Positions 1 to 31,728 are shown, counted from the stretch's first letter. The stretch: DNA of 32,000 nt from Microcystis aeruginosa NIES-843 (GCF_000010625.1 NC_010296.1:2820001-2852000); one strand, 5' to 3'. Notes: a model not told the origin generated them from the letters alone. Numbers and translations are program-made.

Positions 1-2871
1 ATATCGCTTCTTTGAGCGGGGAGATTTAATTGTTCCAATTAATCTTAAACCCTATTAGGGATTGAAACGTAATTCAGGCAAAAACTTCGGTTTTTGTTCA
101 AGTTCCAATTAATCTTAAACCCTATTAGGGATTGAAACTAAATATTCTTAGTTTTAATCCTCAGGCAAACCCGTTCCAATTAATCTTAAACCCTATTAGG
201 GATTGAAACAGTTAATAGTGGCTAGAGGAGTAGGATTAAATTGGCGTTCCAATTAATCTTAAACCCTATTAGGGATTGAAACTTAAAAGCAGGTAGTTTT
301 AACTACCTGCTTGATTGTTCCAATTAATCTTAAACCCTATTAGGGATTGAAACTTGTGATCGACCTTTGCCTGCTTGCCAAGCTCTCGATCGTTCCAATT
401 AATCTTAAACCCTATTAGGGATTGAAACCTTCTACCCGCAATAATAGCGCTTCGATCTCTTGGTTCCAATTAATCTTAAACCCTATTAGGGATTGAAACT
501 TTGCTGTGGACTATAAGGGTCGCAACGCTCGATCCGTTCCAATTAATCTTAAACCCTATTAGGGATTGAAACATTGACAGATTACAGTGGGCTGAAACCC
601 ACCGGGTTCCAATTAATCTTAAACCCTATTAGGGATTGAAACGCATTGGCAGATTTATTCAAATTAGCGATCGCATTGTTCCAATTAATCTTAAACCCTA
701 TTAGGGATTGAAACATTTTAGACATTTTTAGGTCTGTGCCAAGAATGCAGTTCCAATTAATCTTAAACCCTATTAGGGATTGAAACCGTTAGTTTCAATT
801 GAAGCATCAAGATAAATATCATCGTTCCAATTAATCTTAAACCCTATTAGGGATTGAAACGTAATATTAAATTATAGAGAAAGACGACCGCAACTAAGTT
901 CCAATTAATCTTAAACCCTATTAGGGATTGAAACATTTTTTTTAGCGACCCTTCGGCTTTGCTCGGGGGTTCCAATTAATCTTAAACCCTATTAGGGATT
1001 GAAACTCATCCGTCTATCATTCACCTTTTTATAATACCATGAAAAGTTCCAATTAATCTTAAACCCTATTAGGGATTGAAACATGAGCCCATTAGTTGAG
1101 GGATTCACAAAAGTTTGTTCCAATTAATCTTAAACCCTATTAGGGATTGAAACAAAAAAGGAGGACAAGTTGATGGGATTTGTAAAACGTTCCAATTAAT
1201 CTTAAACCCTATTAGGGATTGAAACCGAATACTTCATCTGACCTCCTGTAGAATCGGGTTCCAATTAATCTTAAACCCTATTAGGGATTGAAACCTCGCT
1301 CTAGCCTCGGAACGATCAGAAATCTACTGGTTCCAATTAATCTTAAACCCTATTAGGGATTGAAACCTCTTTGGCTTTCTGATGTGTCTCCTCGCGACAA
1401 ACGTTCCAATTAATCTTAAACCCTATTAGGGATTGAAACGCCATAAGAAGGGATCTCTTAAATATAAAATTATTGTTCCAATTAATCTTAAACCCTATTA
1501 GGGATTGAAACAATTTCTTATTAGAGATTAAGGGGTAATTGCCCTCGTTCCAATTAATCTTAAACCCTATTAGGGATTGAAACCCACAAACCTTTTTTAC
1601 CGGAGTAACTTTTAGATCGAGTTCCAATTAATCTTAAACCCTATTAGGGATTGAAACTCTTTATAAGCATATCTTCTCATTATCTCTCGCCAGTTCCAAT
1701 TAATCTTAAACCCTATTAGGGATTGAAACCTCAAACAAATCGGCTAAATCAAAACTCCAGTTTTGTTCCAATTAATCTTAAACCCTATTAGGGATTGAAA
1801 CTATTCCAATGCTCCCATTTGGGAGCCTAAAAAGATGTTCCAATTAATCTTAAACCCTATTAGGGATTGAAACCGAAATTCTGCAATTCCATCGGCAATA
1901 ATTAAAGTTCCAATTAATCTTAAACCCTATTAGGGATTGAAACCGAAATTCTGCAATTCCATCGGCAATAATTAAAAAGTTCCAATTAATCTTAAACCCT
2001 ATTAGGGATTGAAACACAATCGAAATTAAAACTAATCCGATAGCGATTAGTTCCAATTAATCTTAAACCCTATTAGGGATTGAAACTGGCAAAGGATAGG
2101 ATAACTCTCTTAAACTCCGCGTTCCAATTAATCTTAAACCCTATTAGGGATTGAAACGCTTCTGGTAGTGGAAATAATGACGACGGTGTGACTGTTCCAA
2201 TTAATCTTAAACCCTATTAGGGATTGAAACCTATGAAGTATCAGAAGATATTGCACGCAAAACAGTAAGGTTCCAATTAATCTTAAACCCTATTAGGGAT
2301 TGAAACCAACTCCTGCTCAACCTACTAAAATAGAGAAAATAGTTCCAATTAATCTTAAACCCTATTAGGGATTGAAACATTTGACGGCACATCTTTTGCT
2401 GATCAGCTAGAAGGTTCCAATTAATCTTAAACCCTATTAGGGATTGAAACACTAAGTATTTTGCTGGTAAGCAAATAGATGAATTGTTCCAATTAATCTT
2501 AAACCCTATTAGGGATTGAAACCCTGATAGTGCAGTATCGCACCCCTCGCCTTAATTGTTCCAATTAATCTTAAACCCTATTAGGGATTGAAACATAGGC
2601 GATACGGGTATTCCATCCGGTTTCACCTGAGGTTCCAATTAATCTTAAACCCTATTAGGGATTGAAACGAGGTACAGGTTGCGGTTTACTTAAGTCTCTA
2701 ACGTTCCAATTAATCTTAAACCCTATTAGGGATTGAAACTTGGATACTTACGAAGATAAATTACCTTGTTCAGCGTTCCAATTAATCTTAAACCCTATTA
2801 GGGATTGAAACTTGTAATTGAGCTTCGTTGTACAGCCAATTTAATCGTTCCAATTAATCTTAAACCCTATT

Positions 2872-3050
2872 GGGACTTAGGCATTTTCGGGCAGCAAAAA
2901 AGGCTCAAACCATTACGGGACAAAGGGTTAACCTCGATTTATGATTTTCCTTGATCTATCTGGGTTTCAGCGATTTTGGGCTTCTCGAAGTAAATCCCAA
3001 GCAGGGATTGGGGTTGAGGCTTTTCTCGATTTGTTTTTTGTCTAAGTCCC
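2872..3050. mobile_element. 179-bp MITE inserted inside CRISPR repeat 40
   Basis: The repeat reads gttccaattaatcttaaaccctatt (2847-2871), then GGGACTTAG...CTAAGTCCC, then a-ctatt-agggattgaaac (3051-3068). The terminal inverted repeat is 9-10 bp. CTAT or CTATT from the repeat is duplicated on both sides. There is no ORF. Confidence 0.8.
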
Positions 3051-4728
3051 ACTATTAGGGATTGAAACTCCTGCTTTGGTAAAATTACTGATGCCCATAA
3101 GCGTTCCAATTAATCTTAAACCCTATTAGGGATTGAAACCAGCCCGAATGGTACGAGACAGCCTGGGCAGACCAAGTTCCAATTAATCTTAAACCCTATT
3201 AGGGATTGAAACTGCTAATCATTCTTTTAAATCTAATTCAGTAAACTTGTTCCAATTAATCTTAAACCCTATTAGGGATTGAAACGTGATTGAGGTGTAG
3301 GTAGTTCCCGCCCATCCAACTGGTTCCAATTAATCTTAAACCCTATTAGGGATTGAAACATTCTGATGGCCAGTTTACGGTTGAGGTAATGGGGGTTCCA
3401 ATTAATCTTAAACCCTATTAGGGATTGAAACATGTAAAACGGGAATCCGCAAAGAGTGTTACCCGGGTTCCAATTAATCTTAAACCCTATTAGGGATTGA
3501 AACAAGGATCGTCGGGCGCGGGATTCGGGAAATGAAATTGTTCCAATTAATCTTAAACCCTATTAGGGATTGAAACATGGTTTTTACTCCTAAGTATTTG
3601 TTTTTACTGGCGTTCCAATTAATCTTAAACCCTATTAGGGATTGAAACAAACTGTAACCCATATCGTTCCGTGATTCTACGGTGTTCCAATTAATCTTAA
3701 ACCCTATTAGGGATTGAAACCCCAGATCGGATATTTAGTAAATTCGATTACCTCTTGTTCCAATTAATCTTAAACCCTATTAGGGATTGAAACACCAAGT
3801 ATTTTGCTGGTAAAGAAACAGACGAATTGTTCCAATTAATCTTAAACCCTATTAGGGATTGAAACGCAGAATCGGAAAAGACGATTAACAATTTTTCCGA
3901 GTTCCAATTAATCTTAAACCCTATTAGGGATTGAAACTTTTTAATCGATTCTTTTTCATTAGCAAGTAATTCGTTCCAATTAATCTTAAACCCTATTAGG
4001 GATTGAAACATTTGCTTCTTATTGCCATAGTGACAAAACCGTATGGGTTCCAATTAATCTTAAACCCTATTAGGGATTGAAACGTAAGCACCTCTCGATA
4101 CTTGCCACTGGACATATTTGTTCCAATTAATCTTAAACCCTATTAGGGATTGAAACCAGTTGGACTGACTTATCGGCATCAGATTTTTAGCGTTCCAATT
4201 AATCTTAAACCCTATTAGGGATTGAAACTTTGAAACTGGCAATAGCGTCGGTGTAGGAGCGGCGGGTTCCAATTAATCTTAAACCCTATTAGGGATTGAA
4301 ACCCCTTCGAGGTAACGCCTTTTAAAGCCAATCCCAACGTTCCAATTAATCTTAAACCCTATTAGGGATTGAAACAGTTAATCGATGAATAGCGATCACC
4401 CTCTTGACTGATCGAGTTCCAATTAATCTTAAACCCTATTAGGGATTGAAACCGCCTACTAAATTCCCCTCATCTTGAATTGATAGCGTTCCAATTAATC
4501 TTAAACCCTATTAGGGATTGAAACTTCTTTTGATGATGATGCTAACCGGGAAGCAATCGTTCCAATTAATCTTAAACCCTATTAGGGACTTCCAAAAAAT
4601 AAACTATTCATGCTCAAGAATAATAATCATTCTCGGAGTGTAGGAGGTAGGGGTCGATGGTTGCCTCCTCCTTCCAATTTTGTAGTAGAATTAATCCTGT
4701 ACATTATTAATCAAGTTTTTCTTTGTAA

Positions 4729-5247
4729 GTGTATATGGAATTAACTGATTCCCTCAAGAAATTGCTCAGTGAAACTGCACTTCAATTAAAAGGTGCAGCT
4801 AAAAGAAGATTCATGGCCCAAACAGTCTTAGAATTAGGCTATGGGGGACAAACCCTTGCTGCACAGGAGTTAGGCTGGAATCGAACTACTATTCGTAAAG
4901 GAATTAAAGAACTAAAAAGAGGTATTATTTGTGTTGATAATCATTCAGCTAAGGGGCGGAAAAAAGCAGAAGAACATTTACCTTTTCTATTGGAAAACAT
5001 CAAAAGTTTAGTGGATTCTCAAAGCCAAACTGACCCAAGTTTTAAAAGCCAAAGGCTTTATGTGAGACTGAGTGCGGCCGAAGTCCGAAAGCAATTAATC
5101 TCTAAATATGGGTACAGTGATGAGGATTTACCGAGCGAGGAAACTATTCGGGTTAAATTAAATAACTTAGGTTATCGTCTGAAAAGAGTCGCTAAAGTTT
5201 TACCTCAAAAAAAATTCCAGAAACCGAGGCAATCTTTGAGGAATTAG
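4729..5247 (+). CDS. Transposase, N-terminal (HTH) part, ISAzo13 / Rhodopirellula-type DDE family
   Basis: 172-aa ORF. The N-terminal pattern (LKGAAKRRFMAQTVLELGYGGQTLAAQELGWNRTTIRKGIKEL) is what I recall for ISAzo13-family transposases. The frame ends shortly after an A8 run at 5207-5214. Confidence 0.75.
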   Translation: MYMELTDSLKKLLSETALQLKGAAKRRFMAQTVLELGYGGQTLAAQELGWNRTTIRKGIKELKRGIICVDNHSAKGRKKAEEHLPFLLENIKSLVDSQSQTDPSFKSQRLYVRLSAAEVRKQLISKYGYSDEDLPSEETIRVKLNNLGYRLKRVAKVLPQKKFQKPRQSLRN

Positions 5248-5282
5248 CTAACATTAATCGGGAAGCGGATGAAGACCCTACG

Positions 5283-5957
5283 ATGTTACGTCTTAGTTTG
5301 GATGCCAAAGCCCGTGTTAATATTGGACTATTTGATCGAGGAGGTAAGAATAGAATAACTGTCGAAACAAACGATCATGATTTTAATCCGAAAACAACCC
5401 TAACCCCTTACGGAATATTTATTCCAGAATTTGATGAGTTGTTTTTGTATTTCACTGCCTCCACAGTCACCAGTGACTTTATTGTTGATATATTAGAAGA
5501 TTTCTGGGAGTCGGAAAAATCTCGTTTTGAGAAAATTAAAACTTTGATAATTAATCAAGATAATGGACCAGAAAATAATTCGAGACGAACTCAGTTCATG
5601 AAACGTATAGTTGAGTTTTCCCAAAAATATCAAGTTAATATACGTTTAGCTTACTATCCCCCTTACCATAGTAAATATAATCCTATTGAACGAACCTGGG
5701 CTGTGTTAGAAAACCCTTGGAATGGGAGTATTTTAGATGAAATCGAAACGGCTTTGAAATTCGCCCAAACTATGACTTGGAAAGGAAAACACCCGATTGT
5801 TAAGTTGATTACTGAAACTTATGAAAAAGGAGTAAAGCTTACTAAAAAAGCCATGGAAAAAATCGAAGAAAAAATCGAACGTCTCACAGAATCAACGAAT
5901 CAAGACTTTCCCGATTTGGGACAATGGTTTATTGATATCTATTATGATAAGACCTAG
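5283..5957 (+). CDS. Transposase, C-terminal DDE part, in the -1 frame relative to 4729-5247; this frame is open from at least 5202
   Basis: 224-aa ORF from its first ATG. The same frame reads ..KKIPETEAIFEELANINREADEDPTMLRLSLDAKARVNIG upstream of that ATG. It therefore continues the upstream ORF if one A of the A8 run is skipped. Confidence 0.75.
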   Translation: MLRLSLDAKARVNIGLFDRGGKNRITVETNDHDFNPKTTLTPYGIFIPEFDELFLYFTASTVTSDFIVDILEDFWESEKSRFEKIKTLIINQDNGPENNSRRTQFMKRIVEFSQKYQVNIRLAYYPPYHSKYNPIERTWAVLENPWNGSILDEIETALKFAQTMTWKGKHPIVKLITETYEKGVKLTKKAMEKIEEKIERLTESTNQDFPDLGQWFIDIYYDKT

Positions 5958-8900
5958 TTTGTAGTTAACTAAGATGGTTAGCTAAAAACTGTCTTTGATT
6001 CTTTAACTTGTCCTTGTTATACTCGAAAAAGCTCGGAAGTATAAGAGTTTGTGCTGCCTATTTTTTCGGAAAAATAGGTTGTAATGGGAGACTCTTTGTT
6101 TTCCTAGACAAAAATAATTACTTTTTCAAAAAAACACTTTTCTATTTTTTTGTTGGGTATTTTATTCTCTGGAAGTCCCTTAGGGATTGAAACAGCAATA
6201 TTTTTGGCATCGGATTCGGTCAAAACTGTTCCAATTAATCTTAAACCCTATTAGGGATTGAAACCTTAAGACAGTGCCTTTGAGCGATAAGGGCGATTAT
6301 CGTTCCAATTAATCTTAAACCCTATTAGGGATTGAAACGCAAATGCAAAATCTTCGGATCAAGCAGAATTATCTGGTTCCAATTAATCTTAAACCCTATT
6401 AGGGATTGAAACGCAAATGCAAAATCTTCGGATCAAGCAGAATTATCTGGTTCCAATTAATCTTAAACCCTATTAGGGATTGAAACAGGCGGGCCGGGAG
6501 ACAGCCTTTTTCTTTGATCAGGTTCCAATTAATCTTAAACCCTATTAGGGATTGAAACTTTGTGAGTCCCTGTGCAACAATCCGAAAATTCCCGTTCCAA
6601 TTAATCTTAAACCCTATTAGGGATTGAAACACTACACACAACCGAATTGTAAGTGATAATTTATCGTTCCAATTAATCTTAAACCCTATTAGGGATTGAA
6701 ACCTGACAGAACGGGTTGAATGGGAAGGTAAGCCTAGTTCCAATTAATCTTAAACCCTATTAGGGATTGAAACGCACAAAGTTGTCACTTTGTCTCGTCA
6801 GGAAAGCGTTCCAATTAATCTTAAACCCTATTAGGGATTGAAACAAATTTTGCATTTGCTGAAAAAATCTTTGACCTTCGTTCCAATTAATCTTAAACCC
6901 TATTAGGGATTGAAACGCTGGTGTACCTAGCCTACAATCTTAGTTTAAATCGTTCCAATTAATCTTAAACCCTATTAGGGATTGAAACCATTTACTTTTT
7001 AATGAAGGCACGCCATAATTTAAGTTCCAATTAATCTTAAACCCTATTAGGGATTGAAACTGTGCAAAGCTACGCCCATCGATTTCCCGTCTGGGGTTCC
7101 AATTAATCTTAAACCCTATTAGGGATTGAAACTGGGAGATTGGAATCACAGCCGAAAAATAGGATCGAGTTCCAATTAATCTTAAACCCTATTAGGGATT
7201 GAAACCCGGCTTTTTTAGCTCCCTCAGTAATGATTATTGGGTTCCAATTAATCTTAAACCCTATTAGGGATTGAAACCCCAACTATACCGATGATTTCGG
7301 TACTGAATACAAGTTCCAATTAATCTTAAACCCTATTAGGGATTGAAACCCCGTATTTGCGGGTGTTGGAGCTATACTCAAAAAGAGTTCCAATTAATCT
7401 TAAACCCTATTAGGGATTGAAACACTATGGTATAATGAAAGTACAAACAAAGAAAAGGTTCCAATTAATCTTAAACCCTATTAGGGATTGAAACTTGATT
7501 ATTTCCGTGGCTATTTTTAAGCATTGCTCATGTTCCAATTAATCTTAAACCCTATTAGGGATTGAAACCATAAAAGTGCCTCTTTAATTCCGGCTTCTAG
7601 AGGTTCCAATTAATCTTAAACCCTATTAGGGATTGAAACATTTTACTTGCAACTTATTCTCAATAAAAAATCAGTTCCAATTAATCTTAAACCCTATTAG
7701 GGATTGAAACCAGAGGCTTGAGCTAATTCAAATTTTTCACGCGCTAGTTCCAATTAATCTTAAACCCTATTAGGGATTGAAACTTTCCTTCCCTCTCGGC
7801 TTTTGCCCGGATAATCGGAGTTCCAATTAATCTTAAACCCTATTAGGGATTGAAACTAAGTTCTGTAGAAAACGACTTAGATATACAGCTTGTTCCAATT
7901 AATCTTAAACCCTATTAGGGATTGAAACACTGTATTCCTTTGGTGCGAGAGTATCGGGGTATCGTTCCAATTAATCTTAAACCCTATTAGGGATTGAAAC
8001 TTTCCTTTATTTTTGGCTGTTTCTCCTAAGCTTGAGTTCCAATTAATCTTAAACCCTATTAGGGATTGAAACTTCGGAGTATCCTGTAGATATGTACTTT
8101 TATAAGGGTTCCAATTAATCTTAAACCCTATTAGGGATTGAAACTTTTTTGTATTCCGTGGAAGAATACGAAGAAATGAAGTTCCAATTAATCTTAAACC
8201 CTATTAGGGATTGAAACATCGACATAAAACACATACTAACAGTCCTAACCAGGTTCCAATTAATCTTAAACCCTATTAGGGATTGAAACAAAGCTAGGCT
8301 AATAGCGGCACTGATTAAAATTTCGTTCCAATTAATCTTAAACCCTATTAGGGATTGAAACGTAACTGCCTTATTTTCTGGCAGTTTTTTCAAAAATGTT
8401 CCAATTAATCTTAAACCCTATTAGGGATTGAAACTACTCGTCGGGAACCCTATCACCCGCTTTCGGTTCCGTTCCAATTAATCTTAAACCCTATTAGGGA
8501 TTGAAACCTGCCATTGTCCGCAATGGTAGCCCTAAGCTATCTGAGTTCCAATTAATCTTAAACCCTATTAGGGATTGAAACGCCAATAAATCCAATTCTC
8601 GCCGGCGCGTCTTGACAGTTCCAATTAATCTTAAACCCTATTAGGGATTGAAACAACAGAAATATTGCTGATTTCGCCGCTATGCCACGCGTTCCAATTA
8701 ATCTTAAACCCTATTAGGGATTGAAACCCCTCGGAACAGCAGTTGCGGCGGTGGCTGAATAAGTTCCAATTAATCTTAAACCCTATTAGGGATTGAAACA
8801 ATTACCACCGGCTTAATCCACCCAGACTGCCGAGTTCCAATTAATCTTAAACCCTATTAGGGATTGAAACGAGGGAAAATCTGCCCTTGTCGCAGATGCC

Positions 8901-9224
8901 CAAATATCGTTCCAATTAATCTTAAACCCTATTAGGGATTGAAACCATGATTTTCTAAATATTCAGCTATCTCTAGCCGAGTTCCAATTAATCTTAAACC
9001 CTATTAGGGATTGAAACCATTTACTTTTTAATGAAGCCACGCCATAATTTAAGTTCCAATTAATCTTAAACCCTATTAGGGATTGAAACCTCACTTTAGG
9101 CTAGTGTTTGCCCTCTCGTGAAAAAGCAAGTTCCAATTAATCTTAAACCCTATTAGGGATTGAAGTGAAGGGAATTTCTGAAATGGAATTCAGTCTGTCT
9201 ATATTTGACTATACTTTTACTAAC

Positions 9225-9854: not shown

Positions 9855-10346
9855 CTTTCTTAACATAAAATTTGACAAAAAGAGAAAAGTGTGCAAGATT
9901 GCTCAAGGGGGTTCTATGGGGGAACTAATTTGATCAGATAGTTTCCAAGTCTGGCTGATATCATGTAACCTTCCCAGTCCTAACCAAATAGTTTTAACAC
10001 TAGGTTCACCGTCGCCTTTTCTACCTAAAAAAACCCCAAGAGAAGCAATCATTCTCACCACTGAAGGTTGAAAATAGGGTGAATTCCCAAAATCAGATGT
10101 GGCACTGACGGCGGCTAGATTTGCCGAGGAATGTCGTACGCTTGTACTAAGTTGGCTGGCCAAGTTTTCCACGATACTGATTAACCTTTTCTTTCTTCTC
10201 GTGTCTCCTAGGTCTGCATACTGTAATTCTTGGGCTGCCCATTTCTCCATTTTTTTGCTCACCTCCACCTTGATTCCTTCTTTCAAAACTATACCTATCA
10301 ATCGGTTCCCCTTTTTTTAAGTTTCTTCTCTTTTTGTTAAGAAAGC
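9855..10346 (-). mobile_element. Internally deleted IS4-family (Tn5-like) element remnant that retains both ends
   Basis: CTTTCTTAACA...AAAAGAGAA occurs at 9855-9890 and its inverted counterpart TTCTCTTTTTGTTAAGAAAG at about 10327-10346. These enclose a fused N-terminal plus C-terminal transposase fragment. Confidence 0.65.
9903..10301 (-). pseudogene. IS4-family transposase remnant: N-terminal DNA-binding segment fused to a C-terminal tail
   Basis: MEKWAAQELQYADLGDTRRKKRLISIVENLA is the typical Tn5-like N-terminus. The tail ..SLGVFLGRKGDGEPSVKTIWLGLGRLHDISQTWKL is the typical C-terminus. The roughly 300-aa catalytic core is missing. The likely original start is the internal Met at 10250. 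Confidence 0.7.
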
Positions 10347-11421: not shown

Positions 11422-11617
11422 TAAGTAGGTAGGTGTTAAAAGTTGTCAGACACCCCCCTTATCAAGGGGGGCAGGGGGGATCCCCCCGCCTATCGGCACC
11501 CCCCTTATCAAGGGGGGCAGGGGGGATCCCCCCGCCTATCGGCACCCCCCTTATCAAGGGGGGCAGGGGGGATCAGAGGCAAAATCTATCTTCAATTTAA
11601 TTATAACTACTTACTTA
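11422..11617. mobile_element. MITE-like dispersed element with G6/C6-rich 46-bp tandem units (copy 1)
   Basis: It starts TAAGTAGGTAGGTGTTAAAAGTTGTCAGACACCCCCC and ends AATTTAATTATAACTACTTACTTA. About 2.7 copies of ACCCCCCTTATCAAGGGGGGCAGGGGGGATCCCCCCGCCTATCGGC lie at 11452-11574. A second copy is at 20692-20844. Confidence 0.75.
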
Positions 11618-16699: not shown

Positions 16700-17730
16700 A
16701 TGGATTATCAAAACTGATCAGATGAACAATTCAAACGCCGTTTCGGTGTGTATAAACAAACCTATAGAAAGATGGTAGAATCAGTAAAAAGTGTTGAAGC
16801 CGACTCTAATTCACCATCTAAAAGGGGACCGAAACCTAAACTATCTATAGAAGAACAAGTTTTAGTAACGTTAGAATATTGGCGAGAATATAGAACATAT
16901 TTTCACATTGGTACAAGCTGGGAACTATCAGAATCAACTATATGTCGGATTGTAAATAAGACGGAAAAAATGCTTTTACAATCGGGAAACTTCCGTTTAA
17001 AAGGAAAAAAAGCTTTACTCAATCAAGCAGAGATACCGGTCGTAACGGTAATGGATGTAACGGAAACTCCCATTGAACGCCCCCAAAAGAAACCGAAAGA
17101 TTTTTTGGGGGGTAAAAGAGGTTATCATACTTTAAAATCCCAATTAGTAGCTGATCAAAATACAGAGGAAATTATCTGTGTCTTTTGTGGGAAAGTCAGA
17201 GGTCATGATTTTAGTTTATTTAAAAAAAGTCGAGTTCGTTTTCATCCTTTAACTACCAGCATAGAAGACAGTGGTTATCAGGGAATAGCTGCATACCATA
17301 GTAATAGTTATACACCGAAAAAGAAACCGAAAAATGGAAAATTAACAGACTTAGAAAAGGAGTATAACAAGGCTTTGGCCAAAGAAAGAATTATCATTGA
17401 ACCTATAAATAGGAAACTCAAAATCTTTAAAATATTATCCTGTAAATATCGGAATCGTCGTCGAAGATATAGTTTAAGAGTTAACTTGTTGGCGGCTATT
17501 TATAACGGGAGCATCTCACCTTTGCAATGAGCATAAATACTTAGTGGAAAAATAGGCTTTTCGAGGGTAATTCTTGTTTTAATTCTCCATGTACGCAGTC
17601 TTTAAAAGCCTCTATTTCGTTCCAAGACACGATTAAGAGTGGCTTTTAGGCTAAGTATAATTACTTATCGCGTAAGTGAGATGCTCCCATTTATAACTGT
17701 GAGTTAGGGATAGGTATAGCAGCTTCTTAA
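16700..17730 (+). pseudogene. IS5-superfamily transposase with an in-frame TGA at codon 6 and a 182-bp MITE in its 3' end
   Basis: The ATG at 16700 reads MDYQN*SDEQFKRRFGV in frame with the GTG ORF at 16748-17530. After the nested MITE is removed, the frame resumes AAIYN|CELGIGIAAS* and ends at 17730. The pattern ...YWREYRTYFHIG..., ...DVTETPIERP..., ...DSGYQG..., ...YRNRRRR... fits this transposase type. Confidence 0.8.
17507..17688. mobile_element. 182-bp MITE nested in the transposase gene
   Basis: It has a perfect 13-bp terminal inverted repeat, GGGAGCATCTCAC / GTGAGATGCTCCC. A 9-bp direct duplication ATTTATAAC lies at 17498-17506 and 17689-17697. Confidence 0.9.
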
Positions 17731-28354: not shown

Positions 28355-28430
28355 GTAGGGTTGATTCATGAATCAACCCTACCTTGAATCAACCCTACCT
28401 TGAATCAACCCTACCTTGAATCAACCCTAG
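28355..28430. repeat. 28-bp perfect palindrome GTAGGGTTGATTCATGAATCAACCCTAC followed by 3 more tandem copies of its right arm (CTTGAATCAACCCTAC); candidate bidirectional terminator
   Basis: Read directly from the sequence. It lies between convergent genes ending at 28308 (+) and 28513 (-). It is flanked by two further G/C hairpins, GGGGGAggcacttcgTCCCCC and TTGGGGGGtagaaCCCCCCAA. Confidence 0.85.
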
Positions 28431-30297: not shown

Positions 30298-30514
30298 CAG
30301 TTATCAGTTATCAGTTATCAGTTATCAGTGGGTAAGTTATCAGTTATCAGTTATCAGTTATCAGTTATCAGTTATCAGATTTAAGTTTTAAGTGAGCAGT
30401 ATTAAATAGAAGTTTCCTACTGTCTTTTCACTGTTTACTGTTTACTGTTTACTGTTTACTGTTTACTGTTTACTGTTTACTGTTTACTGATCACTGATCA
30501 CTGATTACTGTTTA
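30298..30514. repeat. Heptamer arrays: (CAGTTAT)n at 30298-30378 and a 12-unit array at 30431-30514 (CTGTTTA x8, then CTGATCA x2, CTGATTA, CTGTTTA)
   Basis: Read directly and counted by hand. The arrays lie upstream of the ABC exporter start. Confidence 0.92.
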
Positions 30515-31488: not shown

Positions 31489-31728
31489 AGGAGATAGGAG
31501 ATAGGAGTCAGGAGATAGGAGTCAGGAGCCGGTCGTCAGGAGATAGGAGATAGGAGATTATTTTATTTATTCTCCCCACACCCCACCTCCCCATTCCCCC
31601 TCCCCACACCCCACCTCCCCACTTCCCACTTCCCCACTTCCCCACACCCCACTTCCCACTTCCCACTTCCCCACTTCCCACTTCCCCACTTCCCCACTTC
31701 CCACTTCCCCACTTCCCCACTTCCCCAA
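31489..31728. repeat. STRR block: (GGAGATA/GGAGTCA)n at 31489-31558 and a roughly 155-nt C-rich array (CCCCACTT/CCCACTT)n at 31573-31728
   Basis: Read directly from the sequence. On the minus strand (sense for cysC) it is a long run of GGGGAAGT/GGGAAGT units. Confidence 0.9.

Follow-up and report, generated by a model that had tools for sequence, protein, structure and literature searches.

Two repeats of one CRISPR array in Microcystis aeruginosa NIES-843 are split by mobile elements at almost the same nucleotide, and both elements carry GGGACTT at both ends, raising the question of whether a single transposase directed them there. The original prediction held that it did, taking the longer insert as the autonomous and the shorter as the non-autonomous partner. 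The analysis of the window, a stretch of 32,000 nucleotides, points instead to two separate, ordinary transpositions by two unrelated DDE transposase systems, probably guided for the most part by a preference for TA sites.

A type I-D array with two split repeats

The array and its interrupted units comprise the following features:
32..9166, plus strand: CRISPR array of type I-D built on the repeat 'DR1', GTTCCAATTAATCTTAAACCCTATTAGGGATTGAAAC; the window covers 102 of its units, and it extends upstream of the window start
2847..2870, plus strand: unit 40, left part (repeat positions 1-24), ending with the duplicated target CTAT at 2867-2870
3052..3068, plus strand: unit 40, right part, the second CTAT (3052-3055) followed by TAGGGATTGAAAC
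4559..4584, plus strand: unit 61, left part (repeat positions 1-26), ending with the duplicated target TTA at 4582-4584
6180..6193, plus strand: unit 61, right part, the second TTA (6180-6182) followed by GGGATTGAAAC

The repeat is listed as DR1, subtype I-D, in Yang et al. 2015, and alternates regularly with spacers of 32-40 nt up to a degenerate last repeat (9130-9166) that marks the trailer end. The cas genes are situated beyond the window. Syntenic loci in other strains carry csc genes beside the array and cas6-cas4-cas1-cas2 on its far side.

The census of the repeat counts 100 of the 102 units as intact, including the degenerate last one, and 2 of the 102 as interrupted, at nearly one phase and each with a target duplication, as had been predicted. 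Unit 40 reads AAACC CTAT, TGGGACTTAGGCA ... TGTCTAAGTCCCA, CTAT, TAGGGATTGAAAC, and unit 61 reads CCCTA TTA, GGGACTTCCA ... TGGAAGTCCC, TTA, GGGATTGAAAC. Both interruptions fall in the central CTATTAG, the duplications spanning repeat positions 21-24 (CTAT) and 24-26 (TTA); the position in the centre of the repeat palindrome thus holds, and both duplications lie on the predicted repeat hairpin (stem 19-22/26-29, loop 23-25).

The ISAzo13-family insertion sequence in unit 61

The longer insert is an insertion sequence (IS) with a split transposase gene:
4585..6179, plus strand: ISAzo13-family IS, 1595 bp, with terminal inverted repeats GGGACTTCCAAAAAATAAACTA (4585-4606) and the matching arm at 6158-6179
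4735..5247, plus strand: transposase ORF1, 170 aa from ATG (GTG at 4729), N-terminal helix-turn-helix region and start of the ISAzo13 domain
5208..5214, plus strand: A_AAA_AAA heptamer in an A8 run (5207-5214), in a register that fits a -1 frameshift from ORF1 to ORF2
5283..5957, plus strand: transposase ORF2, 224 aa, DDE catalytic part

The predicted ISAzo13 affiliation is confirmed by matches of both halves to PF07592 in Pfam (ORF2, 3.2e-58, profile positions 92-296; ORF1, 1.4e-08) and to NF033519 in NCBIfam (ORF2, 178.5 bits, positions 170-374; ORF1, 82.1 bits, positions 4-145), each half scoring below the 200-bit whole-protein cut-off of the latter because the gene is split. The terminal arms are 87% complementary over 23 nt, one flanking base included. 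The length of 1595 bp falls within the 1.25-2.2 kb expected of the family, the element occupies at least 18 other sites with unrelated flanks, and Microcystis NIES-102 carries at least eight copies that are 100% identical across all 1595 bp.

Fusion of ORF1 and ORF2 by a -1 frameshift would yield 407 aa without a stop codon, and the frameshift site and its context are kept in a relative of 79% nucleotide identity (L105). The transposase is split alike in every copy of the IS examined, and also in most relatives with 66% identity or more; since the split is conserved, it looks programmed and not a defect, and we infer programmed -1 frameshifting from this sequence pattern.

The IS target, a spectrum drawn from only about 18 sites (18 further sites, 31 half-sites), is a 3-bp T-[A/T]-A duplication, with T first in 29/31, A or T second in 28/31 and A third in 29/31. 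Outside these 3 bp, none of the positions compared across the 31 half-sites is biased (lowest p = 0.08). This 3-bp target, measured here, was not found stated in the literature consulted on the family.

The 181-bp MITE in unit 40 and its candidate transposase

The shorter insert is a non-coding element:
2871..3051, strand not assigned: 181-bp MITE with terminal inverted repeats TGGGACTTAGGCA (2871-2883) and TGTCTAAGTCCCA (3039-3051)

Its inverted repeats agree at 12/13 positions, its subterminal regions carry AAAAAAGGCTC/GAGGCTTTT motifs, and the fold computed for it as RNA is a long hairpin (z = -3.9). The element measures 179 bp, the length given earlier, when counted from GGGACTT to AAGTCCC. 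A scan of one-genome-per-species representatives recovered 72 loci of the family, mostly in Nostoc and Scytonema, with four in Microcystis; all copies are about 181 bp, and the alignment with copies from the three genera runs over 181 nt without indels. The four bases flanking the left end are TTAG in 21 cases, TTAA in 16, ATAG in 8, ATAA and CTAA in 4 each and CTAT in 3, and the duplication, of NTAN type, is a perfect 4 bp in 37/59 copies and matches at three or more of four positions in 45/59. The prediction of a MITE is thereby upheld on every general feature of the class, namely (i) a length below 600 bp, (ii) no coding capacity, (iii) terminal inverted repeats, (iv) a flanking duplication, here CTAT, and (v) multiple copies. 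Within the window, BLAST found no second copy of either the MITE or the IS.

The MITE termini, TGGGACTTAG, are closer to the ends of resident IS701-family elements, TGGGACTTAAAC with 4-bp duplications, than to those of the ISAzo13-family IS, GGGACTTCC. Over the first 10 nt (TGGGACTTA), both MITE ends match the IS701-type end at 9/10 positions, compared to 7/10 for the IS, and for longer stretches of the right end, 14/16 and 16/20 positions agree with the IS701-type end, compared to 12/16 and 14/20 with the IS. The likeness therefore extends to another family beyond 7 nt, a finding that the original prediction had itself named as contrary to its reading. The two IS701-family elements compared, at loci L003 and L008, reach 316 and 291 bits with the NCBIfam profile NF033540 (cut-off 150), and are flanked by the duplications CTAA and TTAG. 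An exact 4-bp duplication and termini resembling those of an IS701 element in the same host, two marks expected of an IS701-derived MITE, are both found.

The match to IS701 is confined to the termini and does not continue subterminally. Among the 72 genome hits, no full-length IS with the exact subterminal sequence of the MITE (…N12 ARAAAAGSCTC) was found, so that the assignment rests on termini and duplication length and the parent would have either diverged or be absent. Judged by the ends of the MITE, the enzyme that most likely moved it in trans is a resident, ISMae34-like IS701-family transposase.

Target preference and transposon density

In the proposed explanation, the ISAzo13-family transposase would make cuts staggered by 3 nt at T-[A/T]-A, and an ISMae34-like IS701-family enzyme acting in trans on the MITE would make cuts staggered by 4 nt at N-TA-N; a TA-containing target would be required by both systems. 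The repeat (32% GC) contains four sites of this kind in its 37 nt, namely TTAA at 8, TTAA at 14, CTAT at 21 and TTAG at 24, the last two forming the central CTATTAG; since both systems would need TA, the repeats would hold most of the usable targets in the array. A null model gives them 80% of the MITE-type and 72% of the IS-type target weight. With the measured preferences, the probability that both elements hit repeats at phases no more than 3 nt apart is about 0.18, a value explained by this 72-80% share of acceptable motifs in the AT-rich repeat; the chance of roughly 1 in 15 suggested earlier ignored target preference and was too small. For both to lie in the repeat centre, the probability is 0.045-0.10.

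The number of insertions is also as expected. The 5.84-Mb NIES-843 genome contains 452 copies of IS and about 517 of MITEs, a density of about one transposon per 6 kb that predicts about two insertions in the 12.7-kb array. In the NIES-843 layout, the inserts occupy units 113 and 134 from the leader of a 175-unit array, and the leader-proximal 112 units are free of inserts. In such a transposon-saturated host, an old stretch of the array may well serve as a nearly neutral landing place, and density alone would account for both events. Each insertion destroys one repeat hairpin and would therefore break Cas6 processing at that unit, with a presumed effect on crRNA.

We regard two separate transpositions at preferred TA sites as the probable course of events. 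Among the points against this explanation are two observations: CTAT, the site used by the MITE, is a minor target type of its family (3/67), and a third interruption, described below, is central as well (P = 0.014-0.034 for three of three).

The repeat centre as a possible hot spot

A less probable reading, though one to be taken seriously, is that the repeat centre CCC-TATTA-GGG is a true hot spot for several unrelated TA-targeting transposons, the flexible TA steps between G/C runs at the hairpin loop giving this site an advantage over the remaining TA sites in the array through local DNA shape or deformability, with neither a shared transposase nor a dedicated anti-CRISPR function. In 12 arrays comprising about 430 repeat units, a survey that under-counts IS insertions because draft assemblies break at IS copies disclosed one further interruption, in another strain and unrelated to the two inserts, with TA duplicated at repeat positions 25-26. 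All three independent interruptions thus lie in positions 21-27, in three elements with 4-, 3- and 2-bp duplications (P = 0.014 for three of three in the centre under a short-motif null, and 0.034 if any single TA zone may receive all three), and the two TTAA sites of the repeat, at least equal by motif, were never used. In addition, Table 3 of Yang et al. 2015 gives same-repeat arrays split by about 1.64 kb in TAIHU98, 160 bp in PCC 9808 and 130 bp in PCC 9443, cited here as tabulated. Because the third, unrelated interruption is also central, a modest hot spot is possible.

On the other hand, the events number only three, two of them had been seen before the centre was defined, and the third alone has P of about 0.31; its insert, single-copy in the data surveyed, is a putative mobile element only. 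None of the other copies lies in a GTTCCAATTAATCTTAAACCCTATTAGGGATTGAAAC repeat (0 of about 17 IS sites and 0 of 67 MITE sites, about 84 in all), and thus neither a majority nor a clear excess of copies indicates site-specific targeting of CRISPR repeats. The MITE family displays no palindromic preference, with a mean best stem of 3.03 at 36 reconstructed empty sites vs 2.89 at same-4-mer controls (p = 0.24), bases beyond the 3-bp duplication are unbiased at the IS sites, and a metagenome scan for junctions of the repeat with a GGGACTT end found no further case. The predicted directed insertion into CRISPR repeats is thus weakly supported, with the third central interruption in its favour and the other copies, palindromes, flanks and metagenome against it.

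Two improbable readings: a shared transposase, or selection on the array

That the MITE is the non-autonomous partner of the ISAzo13-family IS, moved by one transposase that recognizes the shared GGGACTT termini and takes CRISPR repeats as target, is very improbable. Both elements do carry GGGACTT at both ends and lie within 3 nt in repeat phase, and ISAzo13-type ends adjoin TGGGACTTA-type element ends in Microcystis (L008) and Nostoc (L073). However, duplication lengths differ consistently, 3-bp T-[A/T]-A for the IS and 4-bp NTAN for the MITE family. A GGGACTT...AAGTCCC reading of the MITE leaves the flanks ATT and ACT, which are neither T-[A/T]-A nor a duplication. The likeness is lost beyond 7 nt, whereas IS701-type ends have 9-12 nt in common with the MITE family. 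Nostoc is rich in copies of this family, and their right end, CGGGACTTAAACA, agrees there with the IS701-type TGGGACTTAAACA. As the original prediction had noted, only the terminal GGGACTT is common to both, BLAST finding no similarity between the two elements beyond it; the autonomous/non-autonomous pair drawn from it is not supported.

Selection for disabling part of the array, either silencing self-targeting or costly spacers or benefiting mobile elements, is equally improbable: although each insertion removes one repeat hairpin and the 1.6-kb IS might exert a polar effect on the 41 units on its trailer side, there is no direct sign of selection, both inserts lie deep in the old part of the array with the leader-proximal units untouched, their number equals the genome-wide expectation, and the region yielded no excess of promoter-like or terminator-like signals. 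The suggestion that the insertions serve to damage arrays thus found no evidence in its favour, and neutrality appears the likelier state for both.

Comparison with known elements and published arrays

The ISAzo13 family, as represented in ISfinder, is usually described with a single transposase ORF. The IS in unit 61 resembles the family in its transposase profile matches, terminal inverted repeats of about 22 nt, length of about 1.6 kb and multicopy nature, but differs in having two ORFs, in frames 0 and -1, that overlap an A_AAA_AAA site. By size, it is probably ISMae28 of NIES-843, labelled 'IS630' with 1599 bp and eight copies (Kaneko et al. 2007); the weak similarity of its transposase to IS630 and DDE_3 is in keeping with this old label.

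Compared to the IS701 family, in which duplications are 'exactly four bps' and ACT is conserved at terminal positions 5-7 (De Palmenaer et al. 2008, PMC2266710), the MITE agrees in both respects and differs at terminal position 4, with G in place of the consensus Y. ISMae34 is listed with 1368 bp and 32 copies, vs 1363 bp for the IS701-family elements at L008. MaeMITEc (182 bp, 44 copies) and MaeMITEh (179 bp, 20 copies), both listed for NIES-843, and Nezha of Nostoc/Anabaena, given as 130-170 bp vs 181 bp here, likewise are small, non-coding elements of Microcystis and Nostocales with terminal inverted repeats, short AT-rich duplications and a stable fold-back; compared by description and not by consensus sequence, they are leads and not assignments.

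The array itself is already published, as three loci, Cris-1, Cris-2 and Cris-3 of NIES-843 (Yang et al. 2015; Kuno et al. 2012), with the same repeat. The intact repeats next after the two inserts begin at 3103 and 6228, and the published starts of Cris-2 and Cris-3 are 2,823,103 and 2,826,228 (Yang et al. 2015), the same distance of 3125 nt. Repeat counts are equal at 20 for one locus and 40 as published vs 41 here, including the degenerate last unit, for another. The tables of Yang et al. 2015 present three separate loci without a statement of what divides them, and MITEs within Microcystis CRISPRs are cited, in the sources consulted, as reported earlier. A single array interrupted by two unrelated transposons is thus reported as three arrays by annotation pipelines.

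The CRISPR array and its two interrupted repeats

The type I-D CRISPR array extends over 32-9166, with the window start falling inside it, and comprises, according to the repeat census, 102 units of the 37-nt repeat GTTCCAATTAATCTTAAACCCTATTAGGGATTGAAAC, of which 100 are intact and the final one is degenerate. Two units are interrupted:

From 2847, unit 40: 181-bp insert at 2871-3051 (the MITE), with CTAT duplicated at 2867-2870 and 3052-3055
From 4559, unit 61: 1595-bp insert at 4585-6179 (the ISAzo13-family element, hereafter the IS), with TTA duplicated at 4582-4584 and 6180-6182

The duplicated bases correspond to repeat positions 21-24 (CTAT, unit 40) and 24-26 (TTA, unit 61), both overlying the predicted repeat hairpin, which comprises a stem at 19-22/26-29 and a loop at 23-25. 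The sequence and the repeat census thereby bear out to the base the original prediction's description of two repeats interrupted at the centre of the palindrome, each with a duplication. If units are numbered from the leader end following the NIES-843 layout, the inserts occupy units 113 and 134 of the array, both within its older half. In addition, the same spacer, GCAAATGCAAAATCTTCGGATCAAGCAGAATTATCTG, is present in two neighbouring units (6339-6375 and 6413-6449), and spacer 72 of the reconstructed array equals or nearly equals spacer 100 in a comparison tolerating up to three mismatches; such duplicated spacers point to internal duplication via repeat-mediated recombination.

The ISAzo13-family element

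The IS, probably ISMae28, displays terminal inverted repeats of ca. 22 nt, GGGACTTCCA..., and its transposase belongs to the ISAzo13 family (PF07592 at 3.2e-58; also NF033519). An exact-protein look-up disclosed identical elements (100% over all 1595 bp) in Microcystis NIES-102, where at least nine places carry one, as well as in numerous metagenome contigs. Eighteen further sites, providing 31 half-sites, define a 3-bp duplication T-[A/T]-A, with T in the first position in 29 of the 31, A or T in the second in 28, and A in the third in 29. Outside these three bases, the 31 half-sites show no bias (lowest p = 0.08), so that an extended target CC[CT]A immediately 5' of the duplication, as read at the window copy and at L008, L009 and L073 (L-numbers designate comparison loci from other genomes or contigs), was rejected. 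Alternative ends, with A...T included in the element and a 1-bp duplication, are ruled out by the TAG/TAG site in L004. Three of the 12 complete copies carry imperfect duplications differing at the middle base only, TTA/TCA, TAA/TTA and TTA/TAA (L001, L010, L096/L099); these mismatches are the expected remnant of recombination between copies residing at different T-N-A sites and may mark past rearrangements.

The ISAzo13 family is usually described as single-ORF. In the IS, the transposase is split:

4735-5247: ORF1
5207-5214: A8 run with the A_AAA_AAA heptamer at 5208-5214, at the transition between ORF1 and ORF2
5283-5957: ORF2

The register of the heptamer suits a -1 frameshift, which yields an uninterrupted 407-aa protein spanning the whole family profile. 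All copies seen (window; L001-L010, L096-L105) are split in the same way, and a relative at 79% nucleotide identity has the heptamer and its context unaltered. Among protein relatives down to 66% identity, nearly all are of ORF2 size (219-250 aa) and a few are fused (376-381 aa). The split has the appearance of programmed frameshifting or of transcriptional slippage, of the kind found in IS1 and IS3. Curators of IS families may gain more from the conserved candidate frameshift site in this ISAzo13 clade, a by-product of the analysis.

The MITE family

The MITE, a candidate MaeMITEc or MaeMITEh, is bounded by TGGGACTTAGGCA and TGGGACTTAGACA, each followed at equal distance by ARAAAAGSCTC. In a one-genome-per-species scan this pattern matched 72 loci, mostly from Nostoc and Scytonema with four from Microcystis, all of them short, non-coding, ca. 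181 bp long and collinear, free of any indel, with the copy in the window. At the left end, the four adjoining bases read TTAG (21), TTAA (16), ATAG (8), ATAA (4), CTAA (4) and CTAT (3), and a perfect 4-bp duplication is present in 37 of the 59 copies having both ends; the CTAT of the window copy fits the family target pattern as a minor type.

Across Microcystis and Nostoc/Scytonema, the family (L011-L082 and 2871-3051) preserves an exactly constant length and 80% mean column identity, with conserved internal blocks that include AAAAAAGSCTCAAA, TTGATNTATNTGGGTTT and TTGAGGCTT. Such conservation appears unusually tight for a non-coding element across orders, and suggests that the family either spread horizontally in recent times or is constrained at internal sites. 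A scan of viral contigs for the MITE end returned no matches.

Which transposase moves the MITE

The IS and the MITE had been read as an autonomous/non-autonomous pair moved by one transposase, a proposal refuted by their differing duplication length, target and termini beyond 7 nt; no internal similarity between the two was found, and a shared 7-nt terminus is insufficient to make an IS-MITE pair. Past those 7 nt, the MITE termini align with the end of another family, IS701, an outcome that the original prediction had itself specified as refuting it. A further element in the IS loci, ISMae34-like and present in L003 and L008, ends in TGGGACTTAAAC, is flanked by duplications of 4 bp, CTAA and TTAG, and encodes a clear IS701-family transposase, with scores of 316 and 291 bits against NF033540 (cut-off, 150 bits). 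IS701 elements generate duplications of 'exactly four bps' and conserve ACT at terminal positions 5-7 (PMC2266710), with ISMae34, 1368 bp long, occurring in 32 copies in NIES-843 (PMC2779907).

Matches of the MITE right end to the two termini compared
IS701-type end: 9 in the first 10 nt, 14 in 16, 16 in 20
ISAzo13 IS end: 7 in the first 10 nt, 12 in 16, 14 in 20

Further inwards, the matches with the ISAzo13 end reflect A-richness. The other end of the Nostoc MITE, CGGGACTTAAACA, is almost exactly the IS701-type terminus, and it was most probably an IS701-type enzyme that moved the MITE.

The same terminal heptamer occurs in two unrelated transposase families, as GGGACTTCC in ISAzo13-type elements and as TGGGACTTA in IS701-type elements and MITEs, and is common to both in Microcystis and Nostoc (window 4585/6179 and 2871/3051; L003, L008, L031, L042, L073, L105); a rough estimate places the chance expectation of this coincidence at ca. 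0.1 among the IS families of one genome. ISAzo13-type and IS701-type/MITE elements are often arranged end to end or nested: (i) in L008, at 2292-2310, the ISAzo13 IS adjoins an IS701-type element at the TTAG duplication of the latter; (ii) in Nostoc L073, a GGGACTTCC end adjoins a MITE right end likewise; (iii) in L027, at the MITE right end, one TTAG is common to two MITEs; and (iv) in L003, at 996-4181, the IS lies inside an IS701-type element. Through its duplication, an insertion restores a preferred target at which the next element can land.

Proposed mechanism and effects on the array

The duplications, target spectra and family assignments are observed features of the two elements; behind them probably stand two DDE transposition systems, each of which cut a short target containing TA with a stagger, and the 3-bp and 4-bp duplications arose when the staggers were repaired. 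The insertions were probably neutral. Through each of them, one unit would no longer be processed by Cas6, and the 41 units on the trailer side of the IS may be transcribed less because of it; no promoter-like or terminator-like excess emerged from a simple scan.

Chance, palindromes and targeting of repeats

Dedicated targeting of CRISPR repeats, as originally predicted, finds no support: none of the 18 further IS sites lies in a CRISPR repeat, none of the 67 distinct MITE sites lies in this repeat, and the MITE family shows no palindrome preference. The mean best stem of 36 reconstructed empty MITE sites is 3.03 versus 2.89 in controls taken from the same 4-mer sites in the same loci (p = 0.24), and a preference for palindromes or hairpins was accordingly rejected. 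In metagenomes, the search for repeat/GGGACTT junctions (GTTCCAATTAATCTT N0-26 GGGACTT, covering GGGACTT ends within the last 22 nt of the repeat) returned one chance match outside arrays, a weak negative, since the window's own junctions are also absent from the collection. Scanning viral contigs for the repeat gave a single match, a short two-repeat stretch without insertion. The chimeric or array-borne ORFs at 3748-4053 and 6008-6190, looked up to trace these junctions or this part of the array elsewhere, are not on record. The spacers near units 40 and 61 are shared with no other array, sharing being confined to trailer spacers 99-101 (with L116 and L119), so that sister strains offer no empty-site comparison.

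The composition of the array bears on how often insertions would reach repeats by chance. The repeat has a GC content of 32% versus 41% in the spacers, and contains four TA sites: TTAA at 8, TTAA at 14, CTAT at 21 and TTAG at 24. A null model, in which the measured target spectra set the weight of each position in the reconstructed array, assigns to repeats 80% of the MITE-type weight and 72% of the IS-type weight. Under it, both elements fall in repeats, at phases no more than 3 nt apart, with a probability of 0.18, and both fall in the repeat centre with a probability of 0.045-0.10, depending on the weighting used. For positions 21-27, the short-motif model gives an expected share of 15-30% of insertions. 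Moreover, NIES-843 carries 452 IS copies and ca. 517 MITE copies in 5.84 Mb (PMC2779907), roughly one element per 6 kb, and the entire array measures ca. 12.7 kb without inserts; about two insertions are therefore expected in it from genome-wide density alone.

A third central interruption

Syntenic loci from other strains were fetched via the array-adjacent window genes (NUDIX, gpsA, MacB). The survey covered 12 distinct arrays or array segments and ca. 430 repeat units, window included, and disclosed a single further interruption, shared by two related complete genomes, L114 and L115 (CP191409.1 and CP086723.1), with the proviso that draft assemblies would conceal IS insertions. This insert reads ...CCCTATTA / TAGCGGT...93 bp...ACCGCTA / TAGGGATTGAAAC, with inverted ends of 7 nt; it duplicates TA at repeat positions 25-26, also central, bears no resemblance to the GGGACTT elements, and is an independent event. 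The data searched, viral contigs included, contained no second copy (0 matches), so the insert is only putatively mobile.

If the third insert is modelled as simply targeting TA, the probability that all three events fall in the centre is 0.014, that all fall in any one TA zone 0.034, and that all fall in repeats 0.36. This three-event result keeps alive, for a zone that was defined after two of the three events, the rather unlikely reading in which several unrelated TA-targeting transposons have a mild preference for landing in the loop region of the repeat, CCC-TATTA-GGG, through local DNA shape and without a shared transposase. If true, the repeat sequence would influence the fragmentation rate of long arrays in transposon-rich genomes; a real preference for the centre would be a small, concrete case of repeat sequence shaping array decay.

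The L114/L115 locus shows further differences in organization. At 5700-7279, cas4-cas1-cas2 are absent, and cas6 is separated from a short array of 19 units by a TnpB (OrfB_IS605) gene. Directly upstream of this array, two degenerate repeat copies end ...GGATTGAAAC (AAGCTTAAGCCTTACTAAGGATTGAAAC).

Other features of the window

9903-10301 (-): 132-aa Tn5-like fragment comprising the DNA-binding and dimerisation parts only, between gpsA and a LapA-domain gene; kept at the same place in other strains
16748-17530 (+): DDE_Tnp_4/IS5-like transposase gene
11451-11574, 28369-28429, 30298-30514 and 31489-31727: perfect or near-perfect short tandem repeats outside the array

The tandem repeats outside the array include a 46-bp unit repeated 2.7 times with many C6/G6 runs, a 16-bp unit repeated 3.8 times, the heptamers CAGTTAT (11 times) and ACTGTTT (12 times), and a CTCCCCA-type unit (21 times).

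Comparison with the published array

As it stands, the finding of two interrupted repeats matters little in itself; its use is as a warning when arrays are annotated or Microcystis strains are typed by their spacers, where gaps of ca. 0.2 kb and ca. 1.6 kb between 'adjacent arrays' can be transposons inserted within a repeat. Past each of the two inserts, intact repeats resume at 3103 and 6228, respectively, a distance of 3125 nt. In the list of Yang et al. 2015 (PMC4428289), Cris-2 of NIES-843 stands at 2,823,103 and Cris-3 at 2,826,228, likewise 3125 nt apart, with 20 and 40 copies, respectively, of the same repeat, preceded by the 112-repeat Cris-1. The agreement in start spacing and repeat counts indicates that the NIES-843 I-D array is already in the literature as three loci, and the transposon inserts explain this annotation of a single 175-unit array. 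Yang et al. 2015 also show split arrays of this repeat in TAIHU98 (gap of ca. 1.64 kb), PCC 9808 (ca. 160 bp) and PCC 9443 (ca. 130 bp). For MITEs in Microcystis CRISPRs, a 2024 paper cites Kuno et al. 2012. The elements, the element families and the split array have thus all been catalogued before.
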